Shown one piece after another: positions 16,193-39,772 of a stretch of 64,000 bases of DNA (position 1 is its first letter; each line of letters starts with the position of its first letter). Both the position numbers and the translations under genes were made by a program. Source of the stretch: Cohnella mopanensis (lineage in GTDB: Bacteria; Bacillota; Bacilli; Paenibacillales; Paenibacillaceae); the NCBI RefSeq assembly GCF_022352055.1, contig NZ_JAKRWM010000006.1:320377-384376 (forward strand), given 5' to 3'. The notes under the pieces were generated by a model. The model searched no databases, was not told the origin of the DNA, and saw nothing but the letters and a program-made list of their open reading frames with translations.

Positions 16193-17326
16193 ATGAGAAC
16201 AAAAATGAGAATGCTGCTAGCTTCCTCGATCCTATTAGGAGCTCTACCGCTTACGGCGGGATGCGAGCCCTTTCCTTCCGCTTACGTATTTGCCGCAGAT
16301 CGCCCATTGTCCCAGGATCAGCTCCACCAAGAGCTTAACCGTGCCTGGAGCGAGCGACTGGGGTCCCTTAAAGTTACCTTTTCCGGCAAGGAAGGGACGA
16401 TTAAAAGGGATATGAAAGAAATCTTGAATCATGCCCTCTACTCGGACGACTATTTACATTATATTGTAAAATCATATGGCTACGATGCTACGATCAAGGG
16501 AAACATCGCTACCATTACCTTCAAATTCACCTATTGGGAAACCTTAGCCCAGACCAACGAAGTGAAGCAACGCGTCACCCGCACGCTCAAGCGTATTCTT
16601 ACTCCGGAAATGAACGACTTTCAGAAACAAAAAGCGATTCACGATTGGATCGTGACCAACCTTTCCTACGATACGCGCCTCGTTTCCTATTCCGCATACG
16701 ACGGGATCGTGAACGGCGAGACGGTATGCCAGGGCTATGCTCTTCTAACCTATGAAATGATGAGACAAGCGGGCATTCCGGTGAAGATCGTGGAAGGCAC
16801 TTCGCGGGGCATCGCGCACACTTGGAACCTAGTCCAACTCGGGGGCAAATGGTATCACCTCGACACGACGTGGGATGACCCGGTGCCGGATGAAGCCGGA
16901 CGGATCGTGTATAACTATTACAACTTAACGGATTCCCAGATTAAGATCGATCATAAGTGGAAGCCTTCCGCGTTATATCCGACCGCGGTAACCCCATTCG
17001 ATCAAACATTGGCTTCATTGTCTGGCAAAGGTGCCCCGAAAGCTGACTTTTACAAGAAGCTTTACGAACAACTCGGTTTTGTCTACCTAAGCGATGCCAA
17101 TACGGCCACCAGCCTGCAGGAGTTAACGAGCCTCATCAAATCCGCGGTAGATAAGCGCCAGAAGCAATTAATCGTTCGTTACACCAATGGAGTTACGTTC
17201 AAGTCGGATATGAAAAAAGCTTTCTCCGCGCAGAAGGGGCTATCCAGCTATAGCTATTCCTATGAGGACTACACTCCTACGACGATGAATGATAAGCTGC
17301 TGCGTATTAAGTTTACTTATTCTTGA
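16193..17326 (+). CDS. Secreted transglutaminase-like cysteine protease superfamily protein.
   Basis: Signal peptide plus a transglutaminase core (CQGYALLTYEMMR...HTWNLVQLGGKWYHLDTTWDD) with a Cys-His-Asp triad. Confidence 0.7.
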   Translation: MRTKMRMLLASSILLGALPLTAGCEPFPSAYVFAADRPLSQDQLHQELNRAWSERLGSLKVTFSGKEGTIKRDMKEILNHALYSDDYLHYIVKSYGYDATIKGNIATITFKFTYWETLAQTNEVKQRVTRTLKRILTPEMNDFQKQKAIHDWIVTNLSYDTRLVSYSAYDGIVNGETVCQGYALLTYEMMRQAGIPVKIVEGTSRGIAHTWNLVQLGGKWYHLDTTWDDPVPDEAGRIVYNYYNLTDSQIKIDHKWKPSALYPTAVTPFDQTLASLSGKGAPKADFYKKLYEQLGFVYLSDANTATSLQELTSLIKSAVDKRQKQLIVRYTNGVTFKSDMKKAFSAQKGLSSYSYSYEDYTPTTMNDKLLRIKFTYS

Positions 17327-24597: not shown

Positions 24598-25431
24598 ATG
24601 GCAAACTTAAAAGCCCCTACAGCCCGCACATTCAAATATCTCACCTTAATAATAGGTGCATTCTGCGCTCTAGCTCCGCTTGTCGTCGTATTGTTCGCTT
24701 CCTTTAAGTCTTCGCAGGAATATATGGGCACCGGTCCGTTAACCCCCCCGCAGGACTGGTTTAATTTCGACAACTACCGCACGGCTTTCGTTAAAGGGAA
24801 CATGCTGACGGGCTTTAAGAATACGGCGATTATTATGGCCGTGTCCTTAATCGGGAATATCCTGATCGGCACGATGATCGCGTACGTACTGCAACGGTTT
24901 ACCTTTAAGGCCCGCGGCATGATCATGGTCGCGTTCCTGTTCGCCGCCTTAATTCCGAGCGTTACGACGCAGGTTATTTTGTTCAAAATCGTTCATGCGC
25001 TCGGGTTGTTCAACTCGATGGGATCTGCGATTATCCTCTACTTGGGTACCGATATTATCGGGATCTATATCTTCATACAGTTCATGGAAAATATCTCGAC
25101 GCAGTTGGATGAATCGGCAATGCTGGACGGCGCCTCCTATTTCACGATCTTCGCCAAAATCATTTTCCCGTTATTGGCTCCGGCGATCGTTACGTTGCTG
25201 ATCATCAGAGGCATTGGGATATACAATGACTTCTATATTCCGTTCCTGTACATGCCGGACCCTGATCTCCGAACGATATCGACGTCGTTGTTCGCCTTCA
25301 AGGGACCGTTCGGGTCGCATTGGGAAACGATCTGCGCGGCGGTCATGCTCATCATCATCCCTACCGTCATTGCTTTCTTAGCTCTGCAAAAATATATTTA
25401 CAACGGATTTACGCAAGGCGCAGTGAAGTAA
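24598..25431 (+). CDS. Sugar ABC transporter permease (MalG/LplC-like).
   Basis: BPD_transp_1 motif (DESAMLDGASYFTIFAKIIFP). No ATPase is encoded locally, as in MsmX-dependent CUT1 systems. Confidence 0.85.
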   Translation: MANLKAPTARTFKYLTLIIGAFCALAPLVVVLFASFKSSQEYMGTGPLTPPQDWFNFDNYRTAFVKGNMLTGFKNTAIIMAVSLIGNILIGTMIAYVLQRFTFKARGMIMVAFLFAALIPSVTTQVILFKIVHALGLFNSMGSAIILYLGTDIIGIYIFIQFMENISTQLDESAMLDGASYFTIFAKIIFPLLAPAIVTLLIIRGIGIYNDFYIPFLYMPDPDLRTISTSLFAFKGPFGSHWETICAAVMLIIIPTVIAFLALQKYIYNGFTQGAVK

Positions 25432-25474
25432 AAACAAGCCGGCAGAGGATATTCCTCCGCCGGCTTGTTTTTAC
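25431..25474. terminator. Bidirectional rho-independent terminator AAACAAGCCGGCAGAGGA-tatt-CCTCCGCCGGCTTGTTTTT.
   Basis: Long GC stem with A and T runs on both sides, placed between convergent genes. Confidence 0.75.
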
Positions 25475-25475
25475 T

Positions 25476-26216
25476 TCAGATCCCTTCTTTAAGGGCATAT
25501 TCAATCATATCCGCAACGTTCTTGACAAAGTCCTCCTCGCTCTCCCCCAGTATGGGGAGAACCCGAAAGAAGGCGAGCCTCGCCGTCATGCCGGTAAGCT
25601 CCTCATCCTGTTCCTTATAATATTGCAACCCTTCGAAAGTGGTAGGTCTAACGTTTACTCTAACTGCCATCTGCGCCTTCGGATAAAGCTGCTTTAGGGC
25701 TTTCGCGAAGGACTCTGACTTTAGACCCTTCACATCATCGACGGAGGCATAGATGTCTCGAAATTCCGACTCTATCTCGGCCATCAAATCGATATACCAG
25801 TCTACGTCTTCGATTTCGAACACCGACAGGTTCCGCTTGTATCCGTCATCTTCATTGTACGGATACTTCTCCTTCGCTTTCGCGAAGATCTCGCGAGCTT
25901 CGGAAAGCTTTTTATTCCGAATAGCCTCATCGCCTTGTTTGATCAGTTCATTGGCCTCGTTTATGATGCTAAGGCTTTGTTCCTTCTTCCTCAGCGCTTC
26001 TTCGTTGTCTGGATCAAACCTTAGTGCATTATCGTAGGCTGTAATCGCAACGGTATAATCCTTCATTTCGAACATTTGATCGCCGGCCTCTATCGCCTCT
26101 AATGCGATTTTACTCTGACCCGTGCCATTGCACGCCGTTAGCACGAATAGGCTCGACATCACAATCGCAATGACTAGGAGATACCGGCCCGCTTTTCTTC
26201 CGCTTCCATACCACAT
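25476..26216 (-). CDS. TPR-repeat lipoprotein.
   Basis: Lipobox LTACNG and TPR-like repeats (AITAYDNALRFDPDNEEA...). Confidence 0.6.
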   Translation of the reverse strand: MWYGSGRKAGRYLLVIAIVMSSLFVLTACNGTGQSKIALEAIEAGDQMFEMKDYTVAITAYDNALRFDPDNEEALRKKEQSLSIINEANELIKQGDEAIRNKKLSEAREIFAKAKEKYPYNEDDGYKRNLSVFEIEDVDWYIDLMAEIESEFRDIYASVDDVKGLKSESFAKALKQLYPKAQMAVRVNVRPTTFEGLQYYKEQDEELTGMTARLAFFRVLPILGESEEDFVKNVADMIEYALKEGI

Positions 26217-26249
26217 TTCAATTCTGTCCTTCCAATATTAGCTATGATG

Positions 26250-27269
26250 TTACCAATTGTTAACCGCATGCTCGGCAAAAGCGACCAAATCCTTGACTTC
26301 GATCACTCTTCCGTCATCTAGAACAGCTTGTCCGGTAAACGCCCCGAAAATCTGATGGCAACGATTATCCAAGAACAACGCTTTCGCTTCCGTATAGCGG
26401 TCATAGATCGGAGTAAACTCCATCTCGAATCGCCCGTCGTCGCTCGTAAACCGCTTCTTCGCCATATAACCGCCGTTTCCGGCCAGATCGAAATGGACTT
26501 GGCTTATTTTATGGGCAACCCCGTCATAGAACAGCATGTTTTCCGTTGCTGCCGAGGTATTGCCGAATCCGTATCCGATATTAAAGCCGAAACGCTTGCC
26601 CTCGATCCAGCCACTGCCGCTCCCCCAATACCATTCGTTATGGAACGGCCATACGCCCCGTCCCCAATCCAATAAACCGAAAGCAGATTCAGGCTCGAAA
26701 CGGTAAACCTTATCGTCGATCTTCGCAACCCCTTTGGCCGGCATGCAATTGATCTTATGATTATAGTAGAAACATTTCTCGCTCTCATCGAATGGCGTTG
26801 CGATTACGAGAGACGTCGGATCGGGCTGGGACAGCTGAACGTCTATGTCTACTTTCGGAAATTTGCCTCCGCTTGTTTGACAGATTAACCTGCGACCGCC
26901 TTGAAAGACCTGAAACTGCATAAGCAGATTTTTGGCTTTGAACGTAATGTCCTCCTGATCCCCCGACTCCGGCAATTTAAGCCGGTTAAACGGAAAGAAA
27001 AGCAAATGGGAGAATTGATGCATGATTCCGGTGTGGAACTCGAACAGCTTGAACGACACTTCTCCCACATACGAAGCATGACCGATCGTCAGCTGTAAGC
27101 AGTAATCATCGTTCGATACTTGATAGAAATCCCATTCCTTTATCCTCCAAGGCCTCGCCTTGATCGCCTTGCGATTAAAACGCAGAACGGCTCGCGTCGA
27201 ATACCCTTTCTGCAGGAGCGCCCCGTCTTCCCCTAGAACATACCCGGGTGTAATGATCTGATTTTGCAT
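26250..27269 (-). CDS. DUF2804-like hypothetical protein.
   Basis: 339 aa with a WYWGSGSGW-type motif that I recall from DUF2804. No catalytic assignment. Confidence 0.5.
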   Translation of the reverse strand: MQNQIITPGYVLGEDGALLQKGYSTRAVLRFNRKAIKARPWRIKEWDFYQVSNDDYCLQLTIGHASYVGEVSFKLFEFHTGIMHQFSHLLFFPFNRLKLPESGDQEDITFKAKNLLMQFQVFQGGRRLICQTSGGKFPKVDIDVQLSQPDPTSLVIATPFDESEKCFYYNHKINCMPAKGVAKIDDKVYRFEPESAFGLLDWGRGVWPFHNEWYWGSGSGWIEGKRFGFNIGYGFGNTSAATENMLFYDGVAHKISQVHFDLAGNGGYMAKKRFTSDDGRFEMEFTPIYDRYTEAKALFLDNRCHQIFGAFTGQAVLDDGRVIEVKDLVAFAEHAVNNW

Positions 27270-27429
27270 GAATGGGCCTCCATTTTATCGAATCGCAGAA
27301 GTTCCTCTCTCTTTCTCTCTATGTAAATTTTACCTCCAAGTCGTCGCTTGAGGCAATGAAAAACACTCCTACAAGACATCAGCGACATCTCTGTTCAGTG
27401 AAATAAAATTGTAGACTAGCAGTGACGTT

Positions 27430-27446
27430 AAGCTAACGGGCAGGAT
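27430..27446. repeat. Repeat copy AAGCTAACGGGCAGGAT.
   Basis: Member of a degenerate palindromic repeat family with core CTAACGGG(A/C)A. The family has seven copies within 2.7 kb of the islet, plus copies at 283-293 and 38355-38381. Confidence 0.5.
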
Positions 27447-27462
27447 TGCTTACACCCATAAA

Positions 27463-27471
27463 TGTTATAAT
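27463..27471 (+). promoter_or_regulatory. Extended -10 element TGTTATAAT upstream of the first islet ORF.
   Basis: TGnTATAAT match located 32 nt upstream of ATG 27503. The -35 element is weak. Confidence 0.4.
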
Positions 27472-27502
27472 AGTGGTGAAGTATTGGAAAGTTGGTGGTT
27501 TA

Positions 27503-28216
27503 ATGAGTGAAACGAGAGTGTTGCCTGAACCTCATAAATATGCTGTTTGTGCTCCCGCAGATACGCCTATAAAGAATTTTTACAAGGGAATTTATGATGA
27601 AGTTTTTATTTTTTATCATCCATTCATTAAACCAATATCAATTGGCTACGATTTATTTGAACCAGAAACATATCCAGGCAAAAATGAAATTATAGAAAAA
27701 TGCCAAATGGTTACATGGAATCAGTTTTTAACAATATCAGAAATCGAAAGTTACAGACATTTAGACATTGGATTAAGAACCCGAATCATGGGATTGAAAA
27801 AGGAATATGCAAACGAAGTAATCTCTAAAAAGATTCAAGACACTTGTGAGAAACATCAGTTAATTGCTCCAATGGAAGGTTTTTTTCCAGAGTTTCTAAT
27901 GAATAAGGTGCTTTTATCAATAAAACATGAAGGACATGACTGGATATGGTCTGGGGATGAATTTTGCACCGAAAGAAAATTGGAGTACATTGATGATTTA
28001 ATTAATGATAATGAAGCATTGCGAAATCAACACTTGAATCTGTTTACTCACAATAATGAAGTTTTGCTTACAACTCATTGGGATAGCCACTTTTCCCTAC
28101 TCTGTTCGGATAAAGATACAATAAAAAAGATAGTCAAGTTTGCTGGTCTGGAAGGTTTCTTTTGTGATGAAAAGACTGATATTTATTGGAGTTTGCGAAA
28201 CACATCATTCAACTAA
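27503..28216 (+). CDS. Hypothetical protein of 237 aa in the AT-rich islet.
   Basis: Low-GC codon usage distinct from the flanks. ATG 27503 has a GGTGG RBS. The stop is immediately followed by a CGGGAAACG repeat copy and a terminator. Confidence 0.55.
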   Translation: MSETRVLPEPHKYAVCAPADTPIKNFYKGIYDEVFIFYHPFIKPISIGYDLFEPETYPGKNEIIEKCQMVTWNQFLTISEIESYRHLDIGLRTRIMGLKKEYANEVISKKIQDTCEKHQLIAPMEGFFPEFLMNKVLLSIKHEGHDWIWSGDEFCTERKLEYIDDLINDNEALRNQHLNLFTHNNEVLLTTHWDSHFSLLCSDKDTIKKIVKFAGLEGFFCDEKTDIYWSLRNTSFN

Positions 28217-28226
28217 CGGGAAACGT
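28207..28226. repeat. Repeat copy CAACTAACGGGAAACGTTTG that overlaps the stop codon of ORF 27503..28216.
   Basis: Same family. Confidence 0.5.
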
Positions 28227-28242
28227 TTGTTTAATAAGTATG

Positions 28243-28280
28243 CTGCGGCAGCCGACCTAACTATCGGTTGCCGTTTTTAT
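28243..28280 (+). terminator. Rho-independent terminator GCGGCAGCCGA-cctaacta-TCGGTTGCCG followed by TTTTTATT.
   Basis: Stem plus T-run read from the sequence. Confidence 0.7.
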
Positions 28281-28292
28281 TAAGTTAACGGG
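28273..28292. repeat. Repeat copy AAGTTAACGGGCAGTTTAGC.
   Basis: Same family. It pairs most closely with the copy at 27430. Confidence 0.5.
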
Positions 28293-28494
28293 CAGTTTAG
28301 CCCGAAAAAAACAAAGAGGCGACACTGTTGATTTGGTGAGACTCTTCTCTTATTATTGTGGTATCGTTGATACATGAATGTTAAAAAAGGTTTTTGTTAC
28401 TTTTTGAGCCTAATGCTCAGCAAACTTTTTGTGAGAAACCGACAAGTATGACTCGTTCGTGACATTAAAGGCTGAAAAACAATTGGAGGCTTTT

Positions 28495-29433
28495 ATGGCG
28501 AATGACAACGAGTTGCAATCTGCAAAGGATTTAGTGCGACTACTTAAGAATAAGGAAAATTTGACATACGACCTTTTTCAAAAGCATCCTGATTATGAAG
28601 CCGAGGTTAGAAAGAGAATTGAGGCTTTAGGTTACAATTACGACGAAGTCGCTAATGCCGAGAAAGCTGAGGCAATTTTAGATCACTTATGGGAGGACAT
28701 TCTTTCAATCCTCAATCAGGAAGATGCTTCTAGGTTAATGAATGAAGTGGCAATCGGGCTGGTCAATAGTCCACTTAACAGAGCACGAGTTGAACAAGGA
28801 AAGGCCATAATAATTAATTACGGATTGCTAACATTTTTAAATCAGAGCACTAAGTATAAAATTGCAGCTCATGAACCTCAACATGTAACATTCTGCGATA
28901 GAGTTGATCCAAGCAGGTTGACAACTGAAATCGTGAACCTATTTTATGCTGAACTCGTCATGAACTACCGAGAAAAGAATGTTCCAGTAGGTCCTCTAAT
29001 TCTTCTAGATAATGAATCGGAACTTCTACGAGGAGACTACCTCTATGTGAAGGAACTTTTCATTGTCTCCCATGAATTAGCCCATATACTTCTCAACCAT
29101 ACAGAACGTTCTCATTTTGCTGAATTTCAAGCTGACCATCTTGCATACCAAATCGTTAGAGAAGTTCTGGCAAAGACACGCGAGGGTTTGAATGGTAAAT
29201 TTTTGCTCGTAACGCTAACGGATCTTTTCATAGACATGCAGCATCTATCAGGGACCCAAATAAGTGAGACGCACCCACCTGCGGTTTCAAGGCTGCTACA
29301 CATTACACGAGAGTTTTATGGAGATGAGTTGGCTGAAGCTATGAAAAAGTATTTGATGAACATAGATAGCGAGGAATACGAAAAGCTACTTTCTTTAATG
29401 CCTGATTATGGTTGTGGAACCACTGTCGGGTGA
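28495..29433 (+). CDS. HExxH zinc-metallopeptidase-motif protein (SHELAHILLNH), possibly an ImmA/IrrE-like peptidase domain.
   Basis: ATG 28495 has a GGAGG RBS. The HELxHxxLxH pattern resembles COG2856 peptidases. Low-GC codon usage. No partner XRE regulator is present. Confidence 0.55.
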   Translation: MANDNELQSAKDLVRLLKNKENLTYDLFQKHPDYEAEVRKRIEALGYNYDEVANAEKAEAILDHLWEDILSILNQEDASRLMNEVAIGLVNSPLNRARVEQGKAIIINYGLLTFLNQSTKYKIAAHEPQHVTFCDRVDPSRLTTEIVNLFYAELVMNYREKNVPVGPLILLDNESELLRGDYLYVKELFIVSHELAHILLNHTERSHFAEFQADHLAYQIVREVLAKTREGLNGKFLLVTLTDLFIDMQHLSGTQISETHPPAVSRLLHITREFYGDELAEAMKKYLMNIDSEEYEKLLSLMPDYGCGTTVG

Positions 29434-29465
29434 CGGGAAATCAATTTCAATGTTTGCTGTGTAAT

Positions 29466-29492
29466 AAAGCTAACGGGAACCGAGAACTCAAT
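29466..29492. repeat. Repeat copy AAGCTAACGGGAACCGAGAACTCAATA. A shorter copy TGACGGGAAATC at 29434-29445 overlaps the stop of ORF 28495..29433.
   Basis: Same family. Confidence 0.5.
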
Positions 29493-29568
29493 AAATTACA
29501 TCACGAGGCTACTGCGGAATCGTTTGGTAACCTTGCTCAGCTAAGGGACAATTTAATGCAACTTTAAC

Positions 29569-29871
29569 GTGGTACAATGTGGGGAAATAGAAGAACGGAG
29601 TGAAGTCTTGGATAAAGATGTTATGTGGGGAATTTTTGTTTCTGAAGAAAGTAAACGTTTTCCAAACTTCTTTCCCATCGGTTTTTACGCGACTCGTGAA
29701 AAGGCAGTCGAAGTAATTCAAGAGCTACCAAAAGACGTTAATTATGATTTGCTCAAGCTGCCTTTGAACCGCAATTTTGCTTATTTTCATAAGAAAAGCG
29801 GCAAGTTAGTAGGTATGGATGATATTTATCACGAGCACTTCCATTTTAAGGGTGAACATGAAAATAGCTGA
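29569..29871 (+). CDS. Small hypothetical protein (about 88-100 aa; the start is uncertain among GTG 29569, TTG 29605 and ATG 29623).
   Basis: ORF in the AT-rich islet with a GGAG about 8 nt before TTG 29605. The stop is followed by an ACTAACGG repeat copy. Confidence 0.4.
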   Translation: MVQCGEIEERSEVLDKDVMWGIFVSEESKRFPNFFPIGFYATREKAVEVIQELPKDVNYDLLKLPLNRNFAYFHKKSGKLVGMDDIYHEHFHFKGEHENS

Positions 29872-30035
29872 ACTAACGGATGACGATGACGATCTAAGCA
29901 GAAGTAAGAGGGGGGCAGTTTATGATAAAGCCCGTACTAAAAAGCCTATTTACAGGGACGTGTTAATCGTAAGCCAACCGTTAACGATGAACGTGATAAG
30001 AACTGAAAACCGCTTACCGAGAAGTAACAGTCCCG

Positions 30036-30060
30036 TTACACTAACAGGAACCGATAGTTC
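30036..30060. repeat. Repeat copy CACTAACAGGAACCGATAGTTCAAA. A further degenerate copy ACTAACGGATGACG lies at 29866-29880.
   Basis: Same family. This is the closest match to the palindromic copy at 38355. Confidence 0.5.
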
Positions 30061-30186
30061 AAAAAGAGCGGTAGCCTAGGACTTTTATTTTCTCATCCAA
30101 GGCTTCCGTTTTTTTCGTATAACTAGGTCAGTCTATAACTATATTTTCATGGAACAACACCCTGCTAAGGTCATGTTTTCTTTCTA

Positions 30187-38354: not shown

Positions 38355-38381
38355 GAACTATCGTTCCCCGTTAGTTCAATT
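38355..38381. repeat. Best palindromic copy of the dispersed repeat: TTGAACTA-ACGGGGAACGA-TAGTTCAA in minus orientation (plus strand reads GAACTATCGTTCCCCGTTAGTTCAA).
   Basis: 8-bp inverted-repeat arms. The core is identical to the CTAACGGG(G)AAC copies in the 27.4-30.1 kb islet. Confidence 0.55.
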
Positions 38382-38456
38382 TCTTTTTGCATGGTGCTGA
38401 TAATGCACCATATGCAGCACCCAGGGCAGTTTGCTTAATGGTATTTACTGCTTTAT

Positions 38457-38720
38457 TTACTGTTCTTGAAAGTCCATTTCTGATCCCCTTATATGGTAAC
38501 CATCCTTATCATGTGTGATAACTCTTATGTAATTACTGTTTGCATCAATAACCCATACAGTATCTTTATCCATTTGAACTGTAGAAACTTGTTGAGGTAT
38601 TGGTGTTAAAGGTATCCCTTGAACTGTTACTGATTGAGATTGATTGTTAAGCTTATTTACCGCCCAAATCGTTAGAACTGTGAGCCAAATCATAATAATT
38701 AATGGATATATATTTTTCAT
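38457..38720 (-). CDS. Small membrane-anchored hypothetical protein.
   Basis: An N-terminal TM helix (IYPLIIMIWLTVLTIWAV) is followed by a small soluble domain. AT-rich codon usage. Confidence 0.5.
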   Translation of the reverse strand: MKNIYPLIIMIWLTVLTIWAVNKLNNQSQSVTVQGIPLTPIPQQVSTVQMDKDTVWVIDANSNYIRVITHDKDGYHIRGSEMDFQEQ

Positions 38721-38796
38721 CGACAAACTAATCCCCCCTCACGATTATCTTAGAGCGTGGGCATATATCAAAGAATGTTGCAGATTATTTCCGTTT

Positions 38797-39585
38797 TCAT
38801 GGATTATAGAGTTTTAATGCTTCCAGCCTTTTTGCTCGCTCAAACGCTTTATGTAAAAACTCTTTAGCCGATAAATCCTCATAATCCCAATTCATGGCCT
38901 CTATTGCAGTCGCGCCTGTATAATCCGTTTCCGCAATTTTTTTCATTGTCGTAGACCAATCAATCGTGCCGTCAAAGGGTAACCCGTGTTGGGCATAACT
39001 TCCGTTATTATCATGTAAATGTAGTGCCATTAACCGGGAACCGTACATGGCTAATAAATCATCGCCTGGATAATGACGGTAGTGATGTCCGCAGTCATAA
39101 CAGAATCCGATACGCAGGGAATCCACTTGCTCCAGCACATATGCCAAATTGGTAAGGTTCCATAAATTCTCCAGTGCAACATTGACACCAAGCTGTTCAG
39201 CTTTTTCAGTGATTCTCTTGATTCTATCCAGTCCCAATGTGTTATATGGATTATTTTCGTTGGGCAAGTGCACCACCATTGTCGGAATCTCAAATTCGGC
39301 GCAATCTGCAACACATTGCAAATAGCAATCAGTTACAGTTTCACCGTCCAGATTGTCAAGCCAGAGGTTGTTTTCGTTATGGACTGGTGTGTGGATGTTT
39401 TCTATAAAAAGACCCGCTTCTCGCGCAATTTGCGGCCCGTTGCGGTAATCGTTCCGACCAAAGCAGTCACGACCAAAGCCATCACTCCACCATAATAAAA
39501 CGCCATCAAATCCAGCTTCTTTTATTAACTGATAACGTTCCTTAATCGGCAAATCATAGCCAAACCAATCATAAATGGTAATCAT
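38797..39585 (-). CDS. Sugar phosphate isomerase/epimerase (xylose-isomerase-like TIM barrel).
   Basis: AP_endonuc_2/TIM-barrel motifs (GFDGVLLWW, ENLWN, HLHDNNG) give a metal-binding His/Glu/Asp pattern. Confidence 0.75.
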   Translation of the reverse strand: MITIYDWFGYDLPIKERYQLIKEAGFDGVLLWWSDGFGRDCFGRNDYRNGPQIAREAGLFIENIHTPVHNENNLWLDNLDGETVTDCYLQCVADCAEFEIPTMVVHLPNENNPYNTLGLDRIKRITEKAEQLGVNVALENLWNLTNLAYVLEQVDSLRIGFCYDCGHHYRHYPGDDLLAMYGSRLMALHLHDNNGSYAQHGLPFDGTIDWSTTMKKIAETDYTGATAIEAMNWDYEDLSAKEFLHKAFERAKRLEALKLYNP

Positions 39586-39724
39586 AGGCCTCTTCCTTTC
39601 TTGCTTTTTCCGTCATAGCTTTTAATGGTGTGCCATCCGCAAACCTTTCATGTTTATTTCTACACTCAAGATTTGATTTCCTTTATTTGTAACAACCCTA
39701 CCCTTTACTTCAACAAATAAAAAA

Positions 39725-39772
39725 GACCCATTGTAATAAACAGAAGGCAGCCTGATAATTGGCTGCCTTCTG
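39725..39772 (-). terminator. Perfect 12-bp hairpin CAGAAGGCAGCC-N8-GGCTGCCTTCTG followed by a T-rich tract (minus-strand sense) after the ferredoxin gene.
   Basis: Read directly from the sequence. Confidence 0.7.

Follow-up and report, generated by a model that had tools for sequence, protein, structure and literature searches.

A low-GC cassette array downstream of rtcB

The stretch analyzed here, hereafter called the window, comprises 64,000 nucleotides of a Cohnella mopanensis contig (NZ_JAKRWM010000006.1, positions 320,377 to 384,376), and our subject is an AT-rich islet of small genes within it, located between a DUF2804 gene (26250-27269, minus strand) and rtcB. The sharp drop in GC content between these two genes, described in a first-pass annotation made from the sequence alone, is borne out by the GC profile of the window, with values of 0.31-0.42 across approx. 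27400-30100 as against 0.47-0.57 in the flanks; the block 27373-30186 has 38% GC. Within this block, 2.75 kb (27391-30145) form an array of three cassettes and one decayed remnant, downstream of a native rtcB. Each cassette is an independent expression unit, consisting of a site which we call T2, a promoter, one gene, a site of a second type (T1) at or just after the stop codon, and a hairpin. On the plus strand, the array reads T2 (site A), open reading frame (ORF) 1, T1 (site B), hairpin, T2 (site C), ORF2, a decayed T1 (site D), T1 (site E), a weak T2 (site E’), ORF3, a decayed T1 (site F), the remnant, T1 (site G) and hairpin. The terminator hairpin is intact only after ORF1 and at the array end. 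The small-ORF islet of the first-pass annotation thus corresponds to three convincing plus-strand ORFs and a fourth, doubtful one.

Cassette 1 starts at site A (GACGTTAAGCTAACGGGCAGGATTGC, 27424-27449), its 5′ boundary, which scores 33.7 with a position weight matrix (PWM); the left junction preceding it (27391-27423) resembles a conserved left “platform” upstream of T2 in prophages. An extended -10 element (TGTTATAAT, 27463-27471), which is kept upstream of the homologous gene in locus L086 (loci retrieved for comparison carry L numbers), leads into ORF1 (27503-28216, 237 aa). ORF1 belongs to the family DUF2711 (PF10924; E = 3.8e-19, 69.6 bits against a cut-off of 22, profile positions 13-215 of 217), which is widespread in Bacillales and has no assigned function; Paenibacillus homologues are 74–84% identical to ORF1. 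Its stop codon is included in site B (ATTCAACTAACGGGAAACGTTTGTTTAATAAG, 28207-28238, PWM 31.7), a T1 found at the same position in L086, L088 and L090, and is followed by a terminator hairpin with a T-tract (28245-28274), the intrinsic terminator that had been claimed inside the islet.

Site C (TTTATTAAGTTAACGGGCAGTTTAGC, 28276-28301), the 5′ boundary of cassette 2, lies at a T1-to-T2 spacing of 69 nt from site B, which is the main junction class elsewhere. It is followed by a sigma-A-type promoter-like site (TTGATT-17-TATTAT, 28328-28356) upstream of ORF2 (28495-29433, 312 aa), which encodes a Lit-like HExxH metallopeptidase with the motif HELAHILLNH. The stop codon of ORF2 is included in the degenerate T1 site D (GGGTGACGGGAAATCAATTTCAAT..., 29427-29457), where the hairpin has been lost; the 3′ end of a Lit homologue in locus L001 is similar to this region. 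Site E (ATAAAGCTAACGGGAACCGAGAACTCAATAAA, 29464-29495, PWM 29.4) and the weak, degenerate site E’ (CTTGCTCAGCTAAGGGACAATTTAAT, 29532-29557, PWM 18.1) precede the second extended -10 element (TGGTACAAT, 29570-29578); both -10 elements can be read directly from the sequence. Cassette 3 carries ORF3 (29608-29871, 87 aa), with a TTG start and a GGAG ribosome-binding site. Degenerate site F (CTAACGGATGACGATGACGATC) and approx. 140 nt of what is probably a decayed cassette remnant occupy 29873-30034. The 3′ boundary of the array is site G (GTTACACTAACAGGAACCGATAGTTCAAAAAG, 30035-30066, PWM 29.4), homologous to L086 4939-5003 (82%) and to the plasmid NZ_CP020864 (79%). The terminal hairpin (30068-30109), a T-tract and a right “platform” (CTAGGTCAGTCTAT) follow (together 30068-30145), and this module probably also terminates rtcB from the opposite strand. 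ORF4 (29858-30079) is doubtful because its reading frame passes through site G. For ORF3 and ORF4, profile searches (Pfam, PADLOC, NCBIfam-type) gave no family match, and a permissive Rfam search of the islet returned chance-level matches only.

The repeat of the first-pass annotation, CTAACGGG(A/C)A, had been counted in seven copies. In exact form it occurs three times (27433, 28213, 29470), always inside the islet, compared to 0.25 expected per 64-kb window; the number of seven holds if degeneracy is allowed, adding copies with one mismatch (28285, 30041) and with two (29432, GTGACGGGAA; 29873, CTAACGGATG). CTAACGG is the most over-represented 7-mer of the islet, with five copies against 0.09 expected (p ~6e-8). 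The stop codons of two ORFs indeed lie in such copies, namely TAA of ORF1 (28214-28216) and TGA of ORF2 (29431-29433). What had been missed is that the repeat is really about 26–32 nt long, comes in the two types T1 and T2, and has further sites outside the islet; the short motif covers the left arm of these sites and the first part of their spacer.

T1 has the form ATTGAACTAAC-GGGRAAC-GTTAGTTCAAT (consensus of 42 distinct sites, aTTaAgCTAACGGGaAACGtTAGTTCAATaAa) and is located 0–60 nt after stop codons or over them. The best copies are perfect 11-7-11 inverted repeats, ATTGAACTAAC-GGGGAAC-GTTAGTTCAAT, and T1 is palindromic since the PWM scores it on both strands. T2 (consensus of 46 sites, tTCgTTaAGCTAACGGGCAGgaTAgt) lies upstream of promoters and shares the arms of T1, (A)TTRARCTAAC and GTTAGTTYAA(T), the right one often being degenerate; the spacer is 6 bp (GGGCAG) in T2 versus 7 bp (GGGRAAC) in T1. 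A full junction of approx. 100 bp comprises T1, a hairpin of variable sequence, a T-tract and T2, with T1-to-T2 spacings in two classes of 54–60 and 65–70 nt. All 50 distinct junctions (50/50) fold to a strong hairpin (median -20 kcal/mol, median z -5.2), using 39 different stem sequences. RNAalifold predicted no pairs on 22 junctions, since the aligned hairpins do not lie in register, and folding per sequence was used instead. Two other readings of the motif were discarded: that covariation maintains T1 as a hairpin in RNA or DNA was rejected by eye, as the T1 arms vary without compensation, and a -35 element of the extracytoplasmic-function or sigma-A type was rejected, as there is no consistent -10 partner or spacing.

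The islet in relatives and T sites in other genomes

The islet is missing from two relatives, in agreement with the accessory character proposed for it. C. cholangitidis (DUF2804 protein 92% identical) follows the window collinearly to the left and right of an interval at approx. 27373-31431, across which collinearity is lost; its homology stops at approx. 27372-27390, beside the decayed half of an old operon terminator, which is intact in C. cholangitidis and reduced in the window to a half-hairpin at approx. 27360-27390. In the second relative, L114 (RtcB 92% identical), collinearity extends from 34932 as far as the rtcB stop at 30188, beyond which msrA follows. Since RtcB is 82–93% identical across Cohnella and Paenibacillus, rtcB is native, and with the SPFH-rtcB pair native and rtcB lost by C. 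cholangitidis, the AT-rich block is the foreign part. An insertion of rtcB together with the islet was considered and rejected, as RtcB is conserved across the family and L114 keeps SPFH-rtcB.

Strong sites, defined by a PWM score of at least 25, have a restricted distribution. There are four T1 and two T2 in the window, confined to two AT-rich blocks, and 12 T1 and 18 T2 in 125 kb of loci fetched via cargo homologues. In contrast, neither T1 nor T2 was found in 1.40 Mb of control loci fetched through DUF2804, which include about 25 Paenibacillus chromosomal loci. Of 20 loci returned by a pattern scan of IMG/VR, 18 have a confirmed T1 together with a T2 in the same orientation (about 18 prophage-like contigs); 113 stretches came from the scan of JGI metagenomes, with junction arrays at 74 metagenome loci, and the first 80 of these JGI loci (467 kb), scored at 24 or higher, hold 122 T1 and 80 T2. 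In every listed metagenome locus with several sites, these share one orientation, the exceptions being L136 and L185 with one opposite-strand T1 each. A 249-kb Paenibacillus plasmid and an Aneurinibacillus chromosome carry T sites as well. BLAST of a plasmid collection yielded a single 70-nt match, which led to another mini-array, and neither the islet nor a prophage junction had a BLAST match among 50,697 GenBank phage records. The repeat is therefore not randomly distributed, with no strong site in the control loci against dozens in cassette arrays.

The loci fetched through DUF2711 (Paenibacillus sp. Soil766, Paenibacillus sp. Marseille-Q4541 and an 857-kb metagenome contig) consist of small genes of low GC arrayed in one direction, T2 standing before the genes and T1 behind them, and the Lit-homologue locus L001 (Paenibacillus sp. 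FSL E2-0201, CP150154) has the same organization. The array of L001 (5900-20300) is also punctuated by a longer repeat unit of 200–500 nt with a 66-aa ORF (MTKRIITTDAELKSVM...), intact and decayed; most cargo genes there are on the opposite strand, and the Lit homologue lies between two T1 sites in reversed orientation. No T sites were found with the Lit homologues in the conjugative element L003 and the Brevibacillus prophage L004, nor with DUF2711 in Bacillus infantis; therefore, cargo genes also exist outside the cassette system.

A second mini-array occupies 38288-39742 of the window on the minus strand. It comprises a T2 (39717-39692), a xylose-isomerase-like TIM-barrel gene (38797-39585), an 87-aa ORF (38457-38720), the best T1 of the window (38380-38349) and a terminator hairpin (38288-38333) common to a convergent chemotaxis-receptor-like gene. 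Weak PWM hits in host-like DNA (T1-like, 19.4, at 16525; T2-like, 16.5, at 33707) are taken as chance because equivalent weak hits occur in C. cholangitidis.

Further observations concern the surroundings of the islet. C. cholangitidis has no rtcB at this locus (window 30187-31479; L006 9840-9900), although the gene is kept in the closer relative L114. The ends of the 4-kb difference carry an imperfect direct repeat of approx. 25 nt, 27391-27420 (..ATTGTAGACTAG..) versus 31428-31452 (..ATTGTAGCTAAG..), which could have served as substrate for the loss of rtcB or, as a microhomology, in array insertion; its left copy also resembles the prophage left platform. The long ORF of rtcB, starting at 31479, overlaps SPFH, and translation likely starts near 31410-31413, after an AGAGGAG ribosome-binding site (408 aa in the NCBI annotation). 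A TPR lipoprotein-like gene (25476-26216, minus strand; region 25431-26249) is missing in C. cholangitidis, where the flanking convergent genes are 60 nt apart; it has host-like GC and no T sites nearby.

T sites as cassette borders, and what the cassettes carry

The DNA of the DUF2711 cassette is 80–83% identical to L086, L088 and L090 from T2 (27434) to the T1/hairpin (28218-28278), the blastn homology with L086 beginning at 27434. The stop codon lies at the same place within T1 in all four genomes, while the neighbors of the cassette differ in every one of them. Homology thus breaks at T2 on one side and at T1 on the other, which supports both the cassette-like arrangement and the shuffling at the repeat that the first-pass annotation had suggested; by which mechanism is taken up below. 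The right end of the array (T1 site G, hairpin, CTAGGTCAGTCTAT) is likewise homologous to a module that closes blocks in L086, in prophages and on the plasmid, behind unrelated genes.

The same can be seen in three groups of related prophages, each having a T2...T1 block at one backbone position with different genes inside. These positions lie between a head-morphogenesis gene and a 408-aa gene, between a 212-aa gene and an 84-aa gene beside the terminase genes, and between the large terminase and portal genes. Backbone identity ends with ...ATCATTAAGCTAACGGGCAGGAT and is restored from CTAACGGGAAACGTTAGTTCAAT onwards; in the related phage L097, the site is empty, 96 nt long and free of T sequences.

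The cargo of the arrays is mixed. It includes GNAT acetyltransferases, NUDIX proteins, methyltransferases, an SDR fragment, AAA_21/AAA_15 ATPases, Imm11, SUKH, DUF2785, a MurD-like ligase and DUFs, together with many proteins without any match. The MurD-like ligase gene (L158 2514-4046) has 60% GC and lies between T2 and T1 in an otherwise low-GC array, so cassettes are not restricted to AT-rich cargo. The idea of orphan immunity or toxin modules receives indirect support, as related arrays contain Imm11, SUKH and Ank beside a GH-E toxin domain; however, none of the three window genes is a recognizable immunity gene, and most cargo is of other kinds. In L088 (Paenibacillus sp. Soil766), the array starts (1-700) with the end of a GH-E nuclease toxin domain protein, followed by an ankyrin-repeat gene, which links some arrays to polymorphic-toxin loci.

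ORF2 had been taken for an ImmA/IrrE-like peptidase. This assignment does not hold, since the match to Pfam M78 is insignificant (E = 0.082, 13.2 bits against a cut-off of 22) and there is no helix-turn-helix gene in the islet. Over its catalytic half, ORF2 matches the PADLOC Lit model (E = 8.2e-8), and it exceeds the cut-off of Pfam M48 (23.6 versus 20.3 bits); no U49 match was obtained in the Pfam copy used. Close relatives have precomputed matches to PF10463 (Peptidase_U49), one of them being named “phage exclusion protein Lit family” by NCBI. HELAH forms residues 193–197, in the C-terminal half, and H193, E194 and H197 are invariant in seven homologues. The model of ORF2 resembles M48 and M13 gluzincins, and its top viral-structure match is an M48 peptidase; Foldseek against PDB gave no significant match. 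The family is rare, with 153 representatives at E <= 1e-3 and one at 1e-30 among the 50%-identity cluster representatives of 1.84 billion proteins, and in an exact-protein look-up neither ORF2 nor the DUF2804 protein was on record.

Homologues of ORF2 occur in three settings: beside the cI/cro-like genes of a Brevibacillus prophage, on a conjugative element and within a variable region of Paenibacillus. Lit itself is the protease of the E. coli e14 prophage (peptidase U49), and like ORF2 it is an HExxH metallopeptidase of approx. 300 aa; the position of ORF2 homologues in a prophage next to a repressor and in a conjugative element adds to this likeness. However, ORF2 is very distant from Lit, scoring 15 bits against the cut-off of 274 of the NCBIfam Lit equivalog PRK09672. 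From its sequence, ORF2 is a candidate phage-exclusion protease. Such a Lit-like protease could abort phage infection, and the cargo in general would give the host accessory traits.

In some arrays, T2 itself is the target of insertion sequences. IS110-family elements (DEDD_Tnp_IS110 and Transposase_20, confirmed with Pfam) are present in the cargo-homologue arrays L086 and L088 and in further metagenome loci, where they lie inside T2, between GCTA and ACGGGCAG, in at least seven independent insertions. Their ends join T2 exactly: T1-hairpin-TT..A is followed by GCTATACCAGC...CTCATAATACGA and then by ACGGGCAG. Insertions at this same point are seen in L086 (1639-3000 and 13650-15150), L158, L161, L187 and L205, several copies being frameshifted. 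The IS110 family chooses its targets by a guide RNA and homes to attC and to repetitive extragenic palindromic (REP) sequences (PMC11208160, PMC11187229). These insertions show that T2 is a multi-copy, conserved IS110 target, which does not imply that IS110 moves the cassettes. For these elements the core of the site is a specific recombination target, a pattern that mirrors the targeting of attC and REP by IS1111/IS110.

How the cassettes may move, and comparison with known systems

We consider it probable, and hold with moderate confidence, that the islet is a horizontally acquired cassette array whose repeat bounds swappable cassettes, with site-specific exchange as the most likely mechanism. 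Taken by itself, the claim that the cassettes move by site-specific recombination stands at slightly less than an even chance. The arms shared by T1 and T2, their differing spacers, the fixed spacing and the conservation of the sites across genera amid diverging sequence argue for recognition by a protein. The arms of 10–12 bp around a spacer of 6–7 bp correspond to the layout of tyrosine-recombinase core sites, and T1 and T2 would then be the recognition sites of a recombinase encoded elsewhere. Since each gene lies between unlike sites, a double crossover (T2 x T2 and T1 x T1) would swap the cargo between replicons, resembling engineered recombinase-mediated cassette exchange, and if like sites within one array recombined, a gene would be excised or inserted along with its junction. 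More tentatively still, T1 and T2 may be heterospecific core sites of an unlinked recombinase, and the whole a natural form of recombinase-mediated cassette exchange in Paenibacillaceae, their phages and plasmids.

Several points weigh against exchange at the sites. Crude motif scans revealed no recombinase next to the window arrays or in most array loci, and regular-expression scans of limited sensitivity found no tyrosine-recombinase motif in the 64-kb window, L001, L086, L088 and L090. XerC/D-like genes occur near T sites in three of 133 loci (L095, L101, L195), where they may be ordinary phage integrases. In L195 (3443-4635) the gene lies 0.3 kb downstream of a perfect T1, and in L095 (2984-3898) and L101 (9370-9972) directly upstream of the large terminase gene which precedes a T2...T1 block; all three are candidate cassette recombinases or ordinary integrases, and we regard them as leads only. 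Within T1, the left arm is variable and extends over coding sequence, and the arms show no compensatory changes. In the window, copies D, E’ and F are degenerate, so this particular array may be inactive. Finally, upstream homology of the L088 DUF2711 gene breaks between promoter and ribosome-binding site and not at T2, showing that ordinary recombination also reshuffles these regions.

This breakpoint and the lack of a linked recombinase would both be expected if shuffling were driven by homology, with the junctions serving as portable terminator-plus-promoter units and RecA or phage annealing recombinases using flanks of 30–150 bp, so that no dedicated recombinase is needed. The prophages fit as well, their flanks being kept beyond the sites (left platform approx. 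60–150 nt, right platform approx. 110 nt), and phages reportedly exchange modules via short diverged homologies. Nevertheless, homology alone leaves unexplained why two palindromic sites with the same arms and different spacers stand at a fixed spacing, and why a 29-bp palindrome is kept across Cohnella, Paenibacillus, Aneurinibacillus, phages and a plasmid while hairpin and flanks diverge. We therefore judge this explanation unlikely, though it deserves to be taken seriously.

It is improbable that the junction is a selfish intergenic repeat of the REP/REPIN or MITE (miniature inverted-repeat transposable element) type which only appears to mark borders. Such an origin would suit a palindromic element of approx. 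100 bp placed just after stop codons and holding a hairpin, and IS110-family elements target REP sequences too (PMC11208160). However, strong copies are absent from the 1.4 Mb of control loci, the Paenibacillus chromosomal ones included; copies are co-oriented with the genes except for the two stray opposite-strand T1 mentioned above; T1 is inherited at the same DUF2711 codon in four genomes; and the variable segment lies between the sites rather than around them. Neither a pattern of terminal inverted repeats with target duplication nor a gene for a REP-associated tyrosine transposase was seen.

Still less probable is that T1 and T2 are operators at which a common transcription factor, e.g., a prophage or host repressor, co-regulates the cassettes. 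Palindromes of the dimer type and the position of T2 upstream of cassette promoters would suit such a role, and GAAC-N4-GTTC, which forms the core of the LexA (Cheo) box in Gram-positive bacteria, is present in the right half of T1 (e.g., L094 956-987), but about half of the T1 copies have AAAC instead of GAAC. Moreover, the distance from T2 to the -10 element varies between approx. 30 and over 100 nt, T1 is placed downstream of genes and before terminators, where an operator has no obvious role, and the breaks of homology at the sites are left unexplained. A chance or low-complexity repeat in AT-rich DNA, as two mismatches in 10 nt in some of the seven copies might suggest, is refuted by the enrichment in the islet and by the recurrence of 26–32-nt sites in the same arrangement in more than 100 independent loci.

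In any case, swappable cassettes with expression signals of their own are bounded by T1/T2 junctions in Paenibacillus-family bacteria, on chromosomes, in prophages and on a plasmid, and even on the weaker reading the T1/T2 signature finds accessory cassettes straight from the DNA in these genomes. If exchange at the sites is a true recombination system, it would be a new route for genes of defense, immunity and small enzymes between phages and hosts, and an integron-like platform of gene capture in Bacillota, exchanging cassettes with their own promoters among chromosomes, prophage late operons and plasmids. It would also explain how morons enter essential phage operons without breakage, and could yield a new heterospecific site pair with its recombinase for genome engineering.

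Among known systems, phage morons match the T2...T1 blocks of the prophage-like contigs, being promoter-gene-terminator units inserted between terminase and portal or among head genes. The window cassettes have the same layout, and a Lit-like exclusion gene is classic moron cargo. However, the window array is chromosomal without adjacent phage genes, and morons are not known with a shared pair of conserved boundary sites nor in arrays outside phages. The pdif modules of Acinetobacter and other Xer-exploiting elements offer a second parallel, since short core-type sites with two arms and a spacer of 6–7 bp bound small modules and the recombinase is encoded elsewhere. There, the sites flank modules in inverted orientation and resemble the chromosomal dif, whereas T1 and T2 are direct repeats, whose sequence we take to be unlike Bacillus dif.

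The closest analogues of the arrays are integrons, with sedentary chromosomal integrons and integrase-less attC clusters counted among them, and the rAID-1 islands discussed below. Gene capture of the integron type is regarded as essentially absent from Bacillota, the hosts of the present arrays. In both systems, small cassettes, most with a single gene, form unidirectional arrays of mixed cargo (GNAT, NUDIX, DUFs, toxin/immunity), both have a boundary element of approx. 100 bp at or over the stop codon with conserved ends (CTAAC...GTTAG, compare RYYYAAC and GTTRRRY) and a variable palindromic center, and both include small arrays without a nearby recombinase and are parasitized by site-specific IS110/IS1111 elements. 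On the other hand, integrons are defined by an IntI-type integrase gene with attI next to the array, and regular-expression scans found no such integrase here. An identity of the junction with attC was rejected on its architecture: attC folds as a single hairpin, whereas here two self-palindromic sites in direct orientation surround a separate terminator hairpin, and only the pentamers CTAAC and GTTAG of the T sites resemble attC boxes. Integron cassettes are promoterless and expressed from Pc, whereas each window cassette has a promoter-like -10 element, with conserved promoter DNA downstream of T2. The present arrays also occur in prophage late operons and on a plasmid.

The rAID-1 islands of Bacteroidales (Ross et al., 2019, 10.1101/471110) are likewise low in GC, with co-directional small genes and intergenic regions of repetitive sequence “reminiscent of integrons”, and immunity families (Imm11, SUKH) occur in related T1/T2 arrays. 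They are defined by a XerD-like recombinase at the 5′ end, which was not found at the window array, belong to another phylum and have unrelated repeats, and the cargo here is much broader than immunity genes. No description of the element emerged from literature searches on DUF2711, Paenibacillus integrons and cassettes, orphan immunity and morons, which is not proof of novelty. The T1/T2 junction thus lacks what defines an integron or rAID-1, yet works like either, and there is a substantial chance that it represents a new recombination system.

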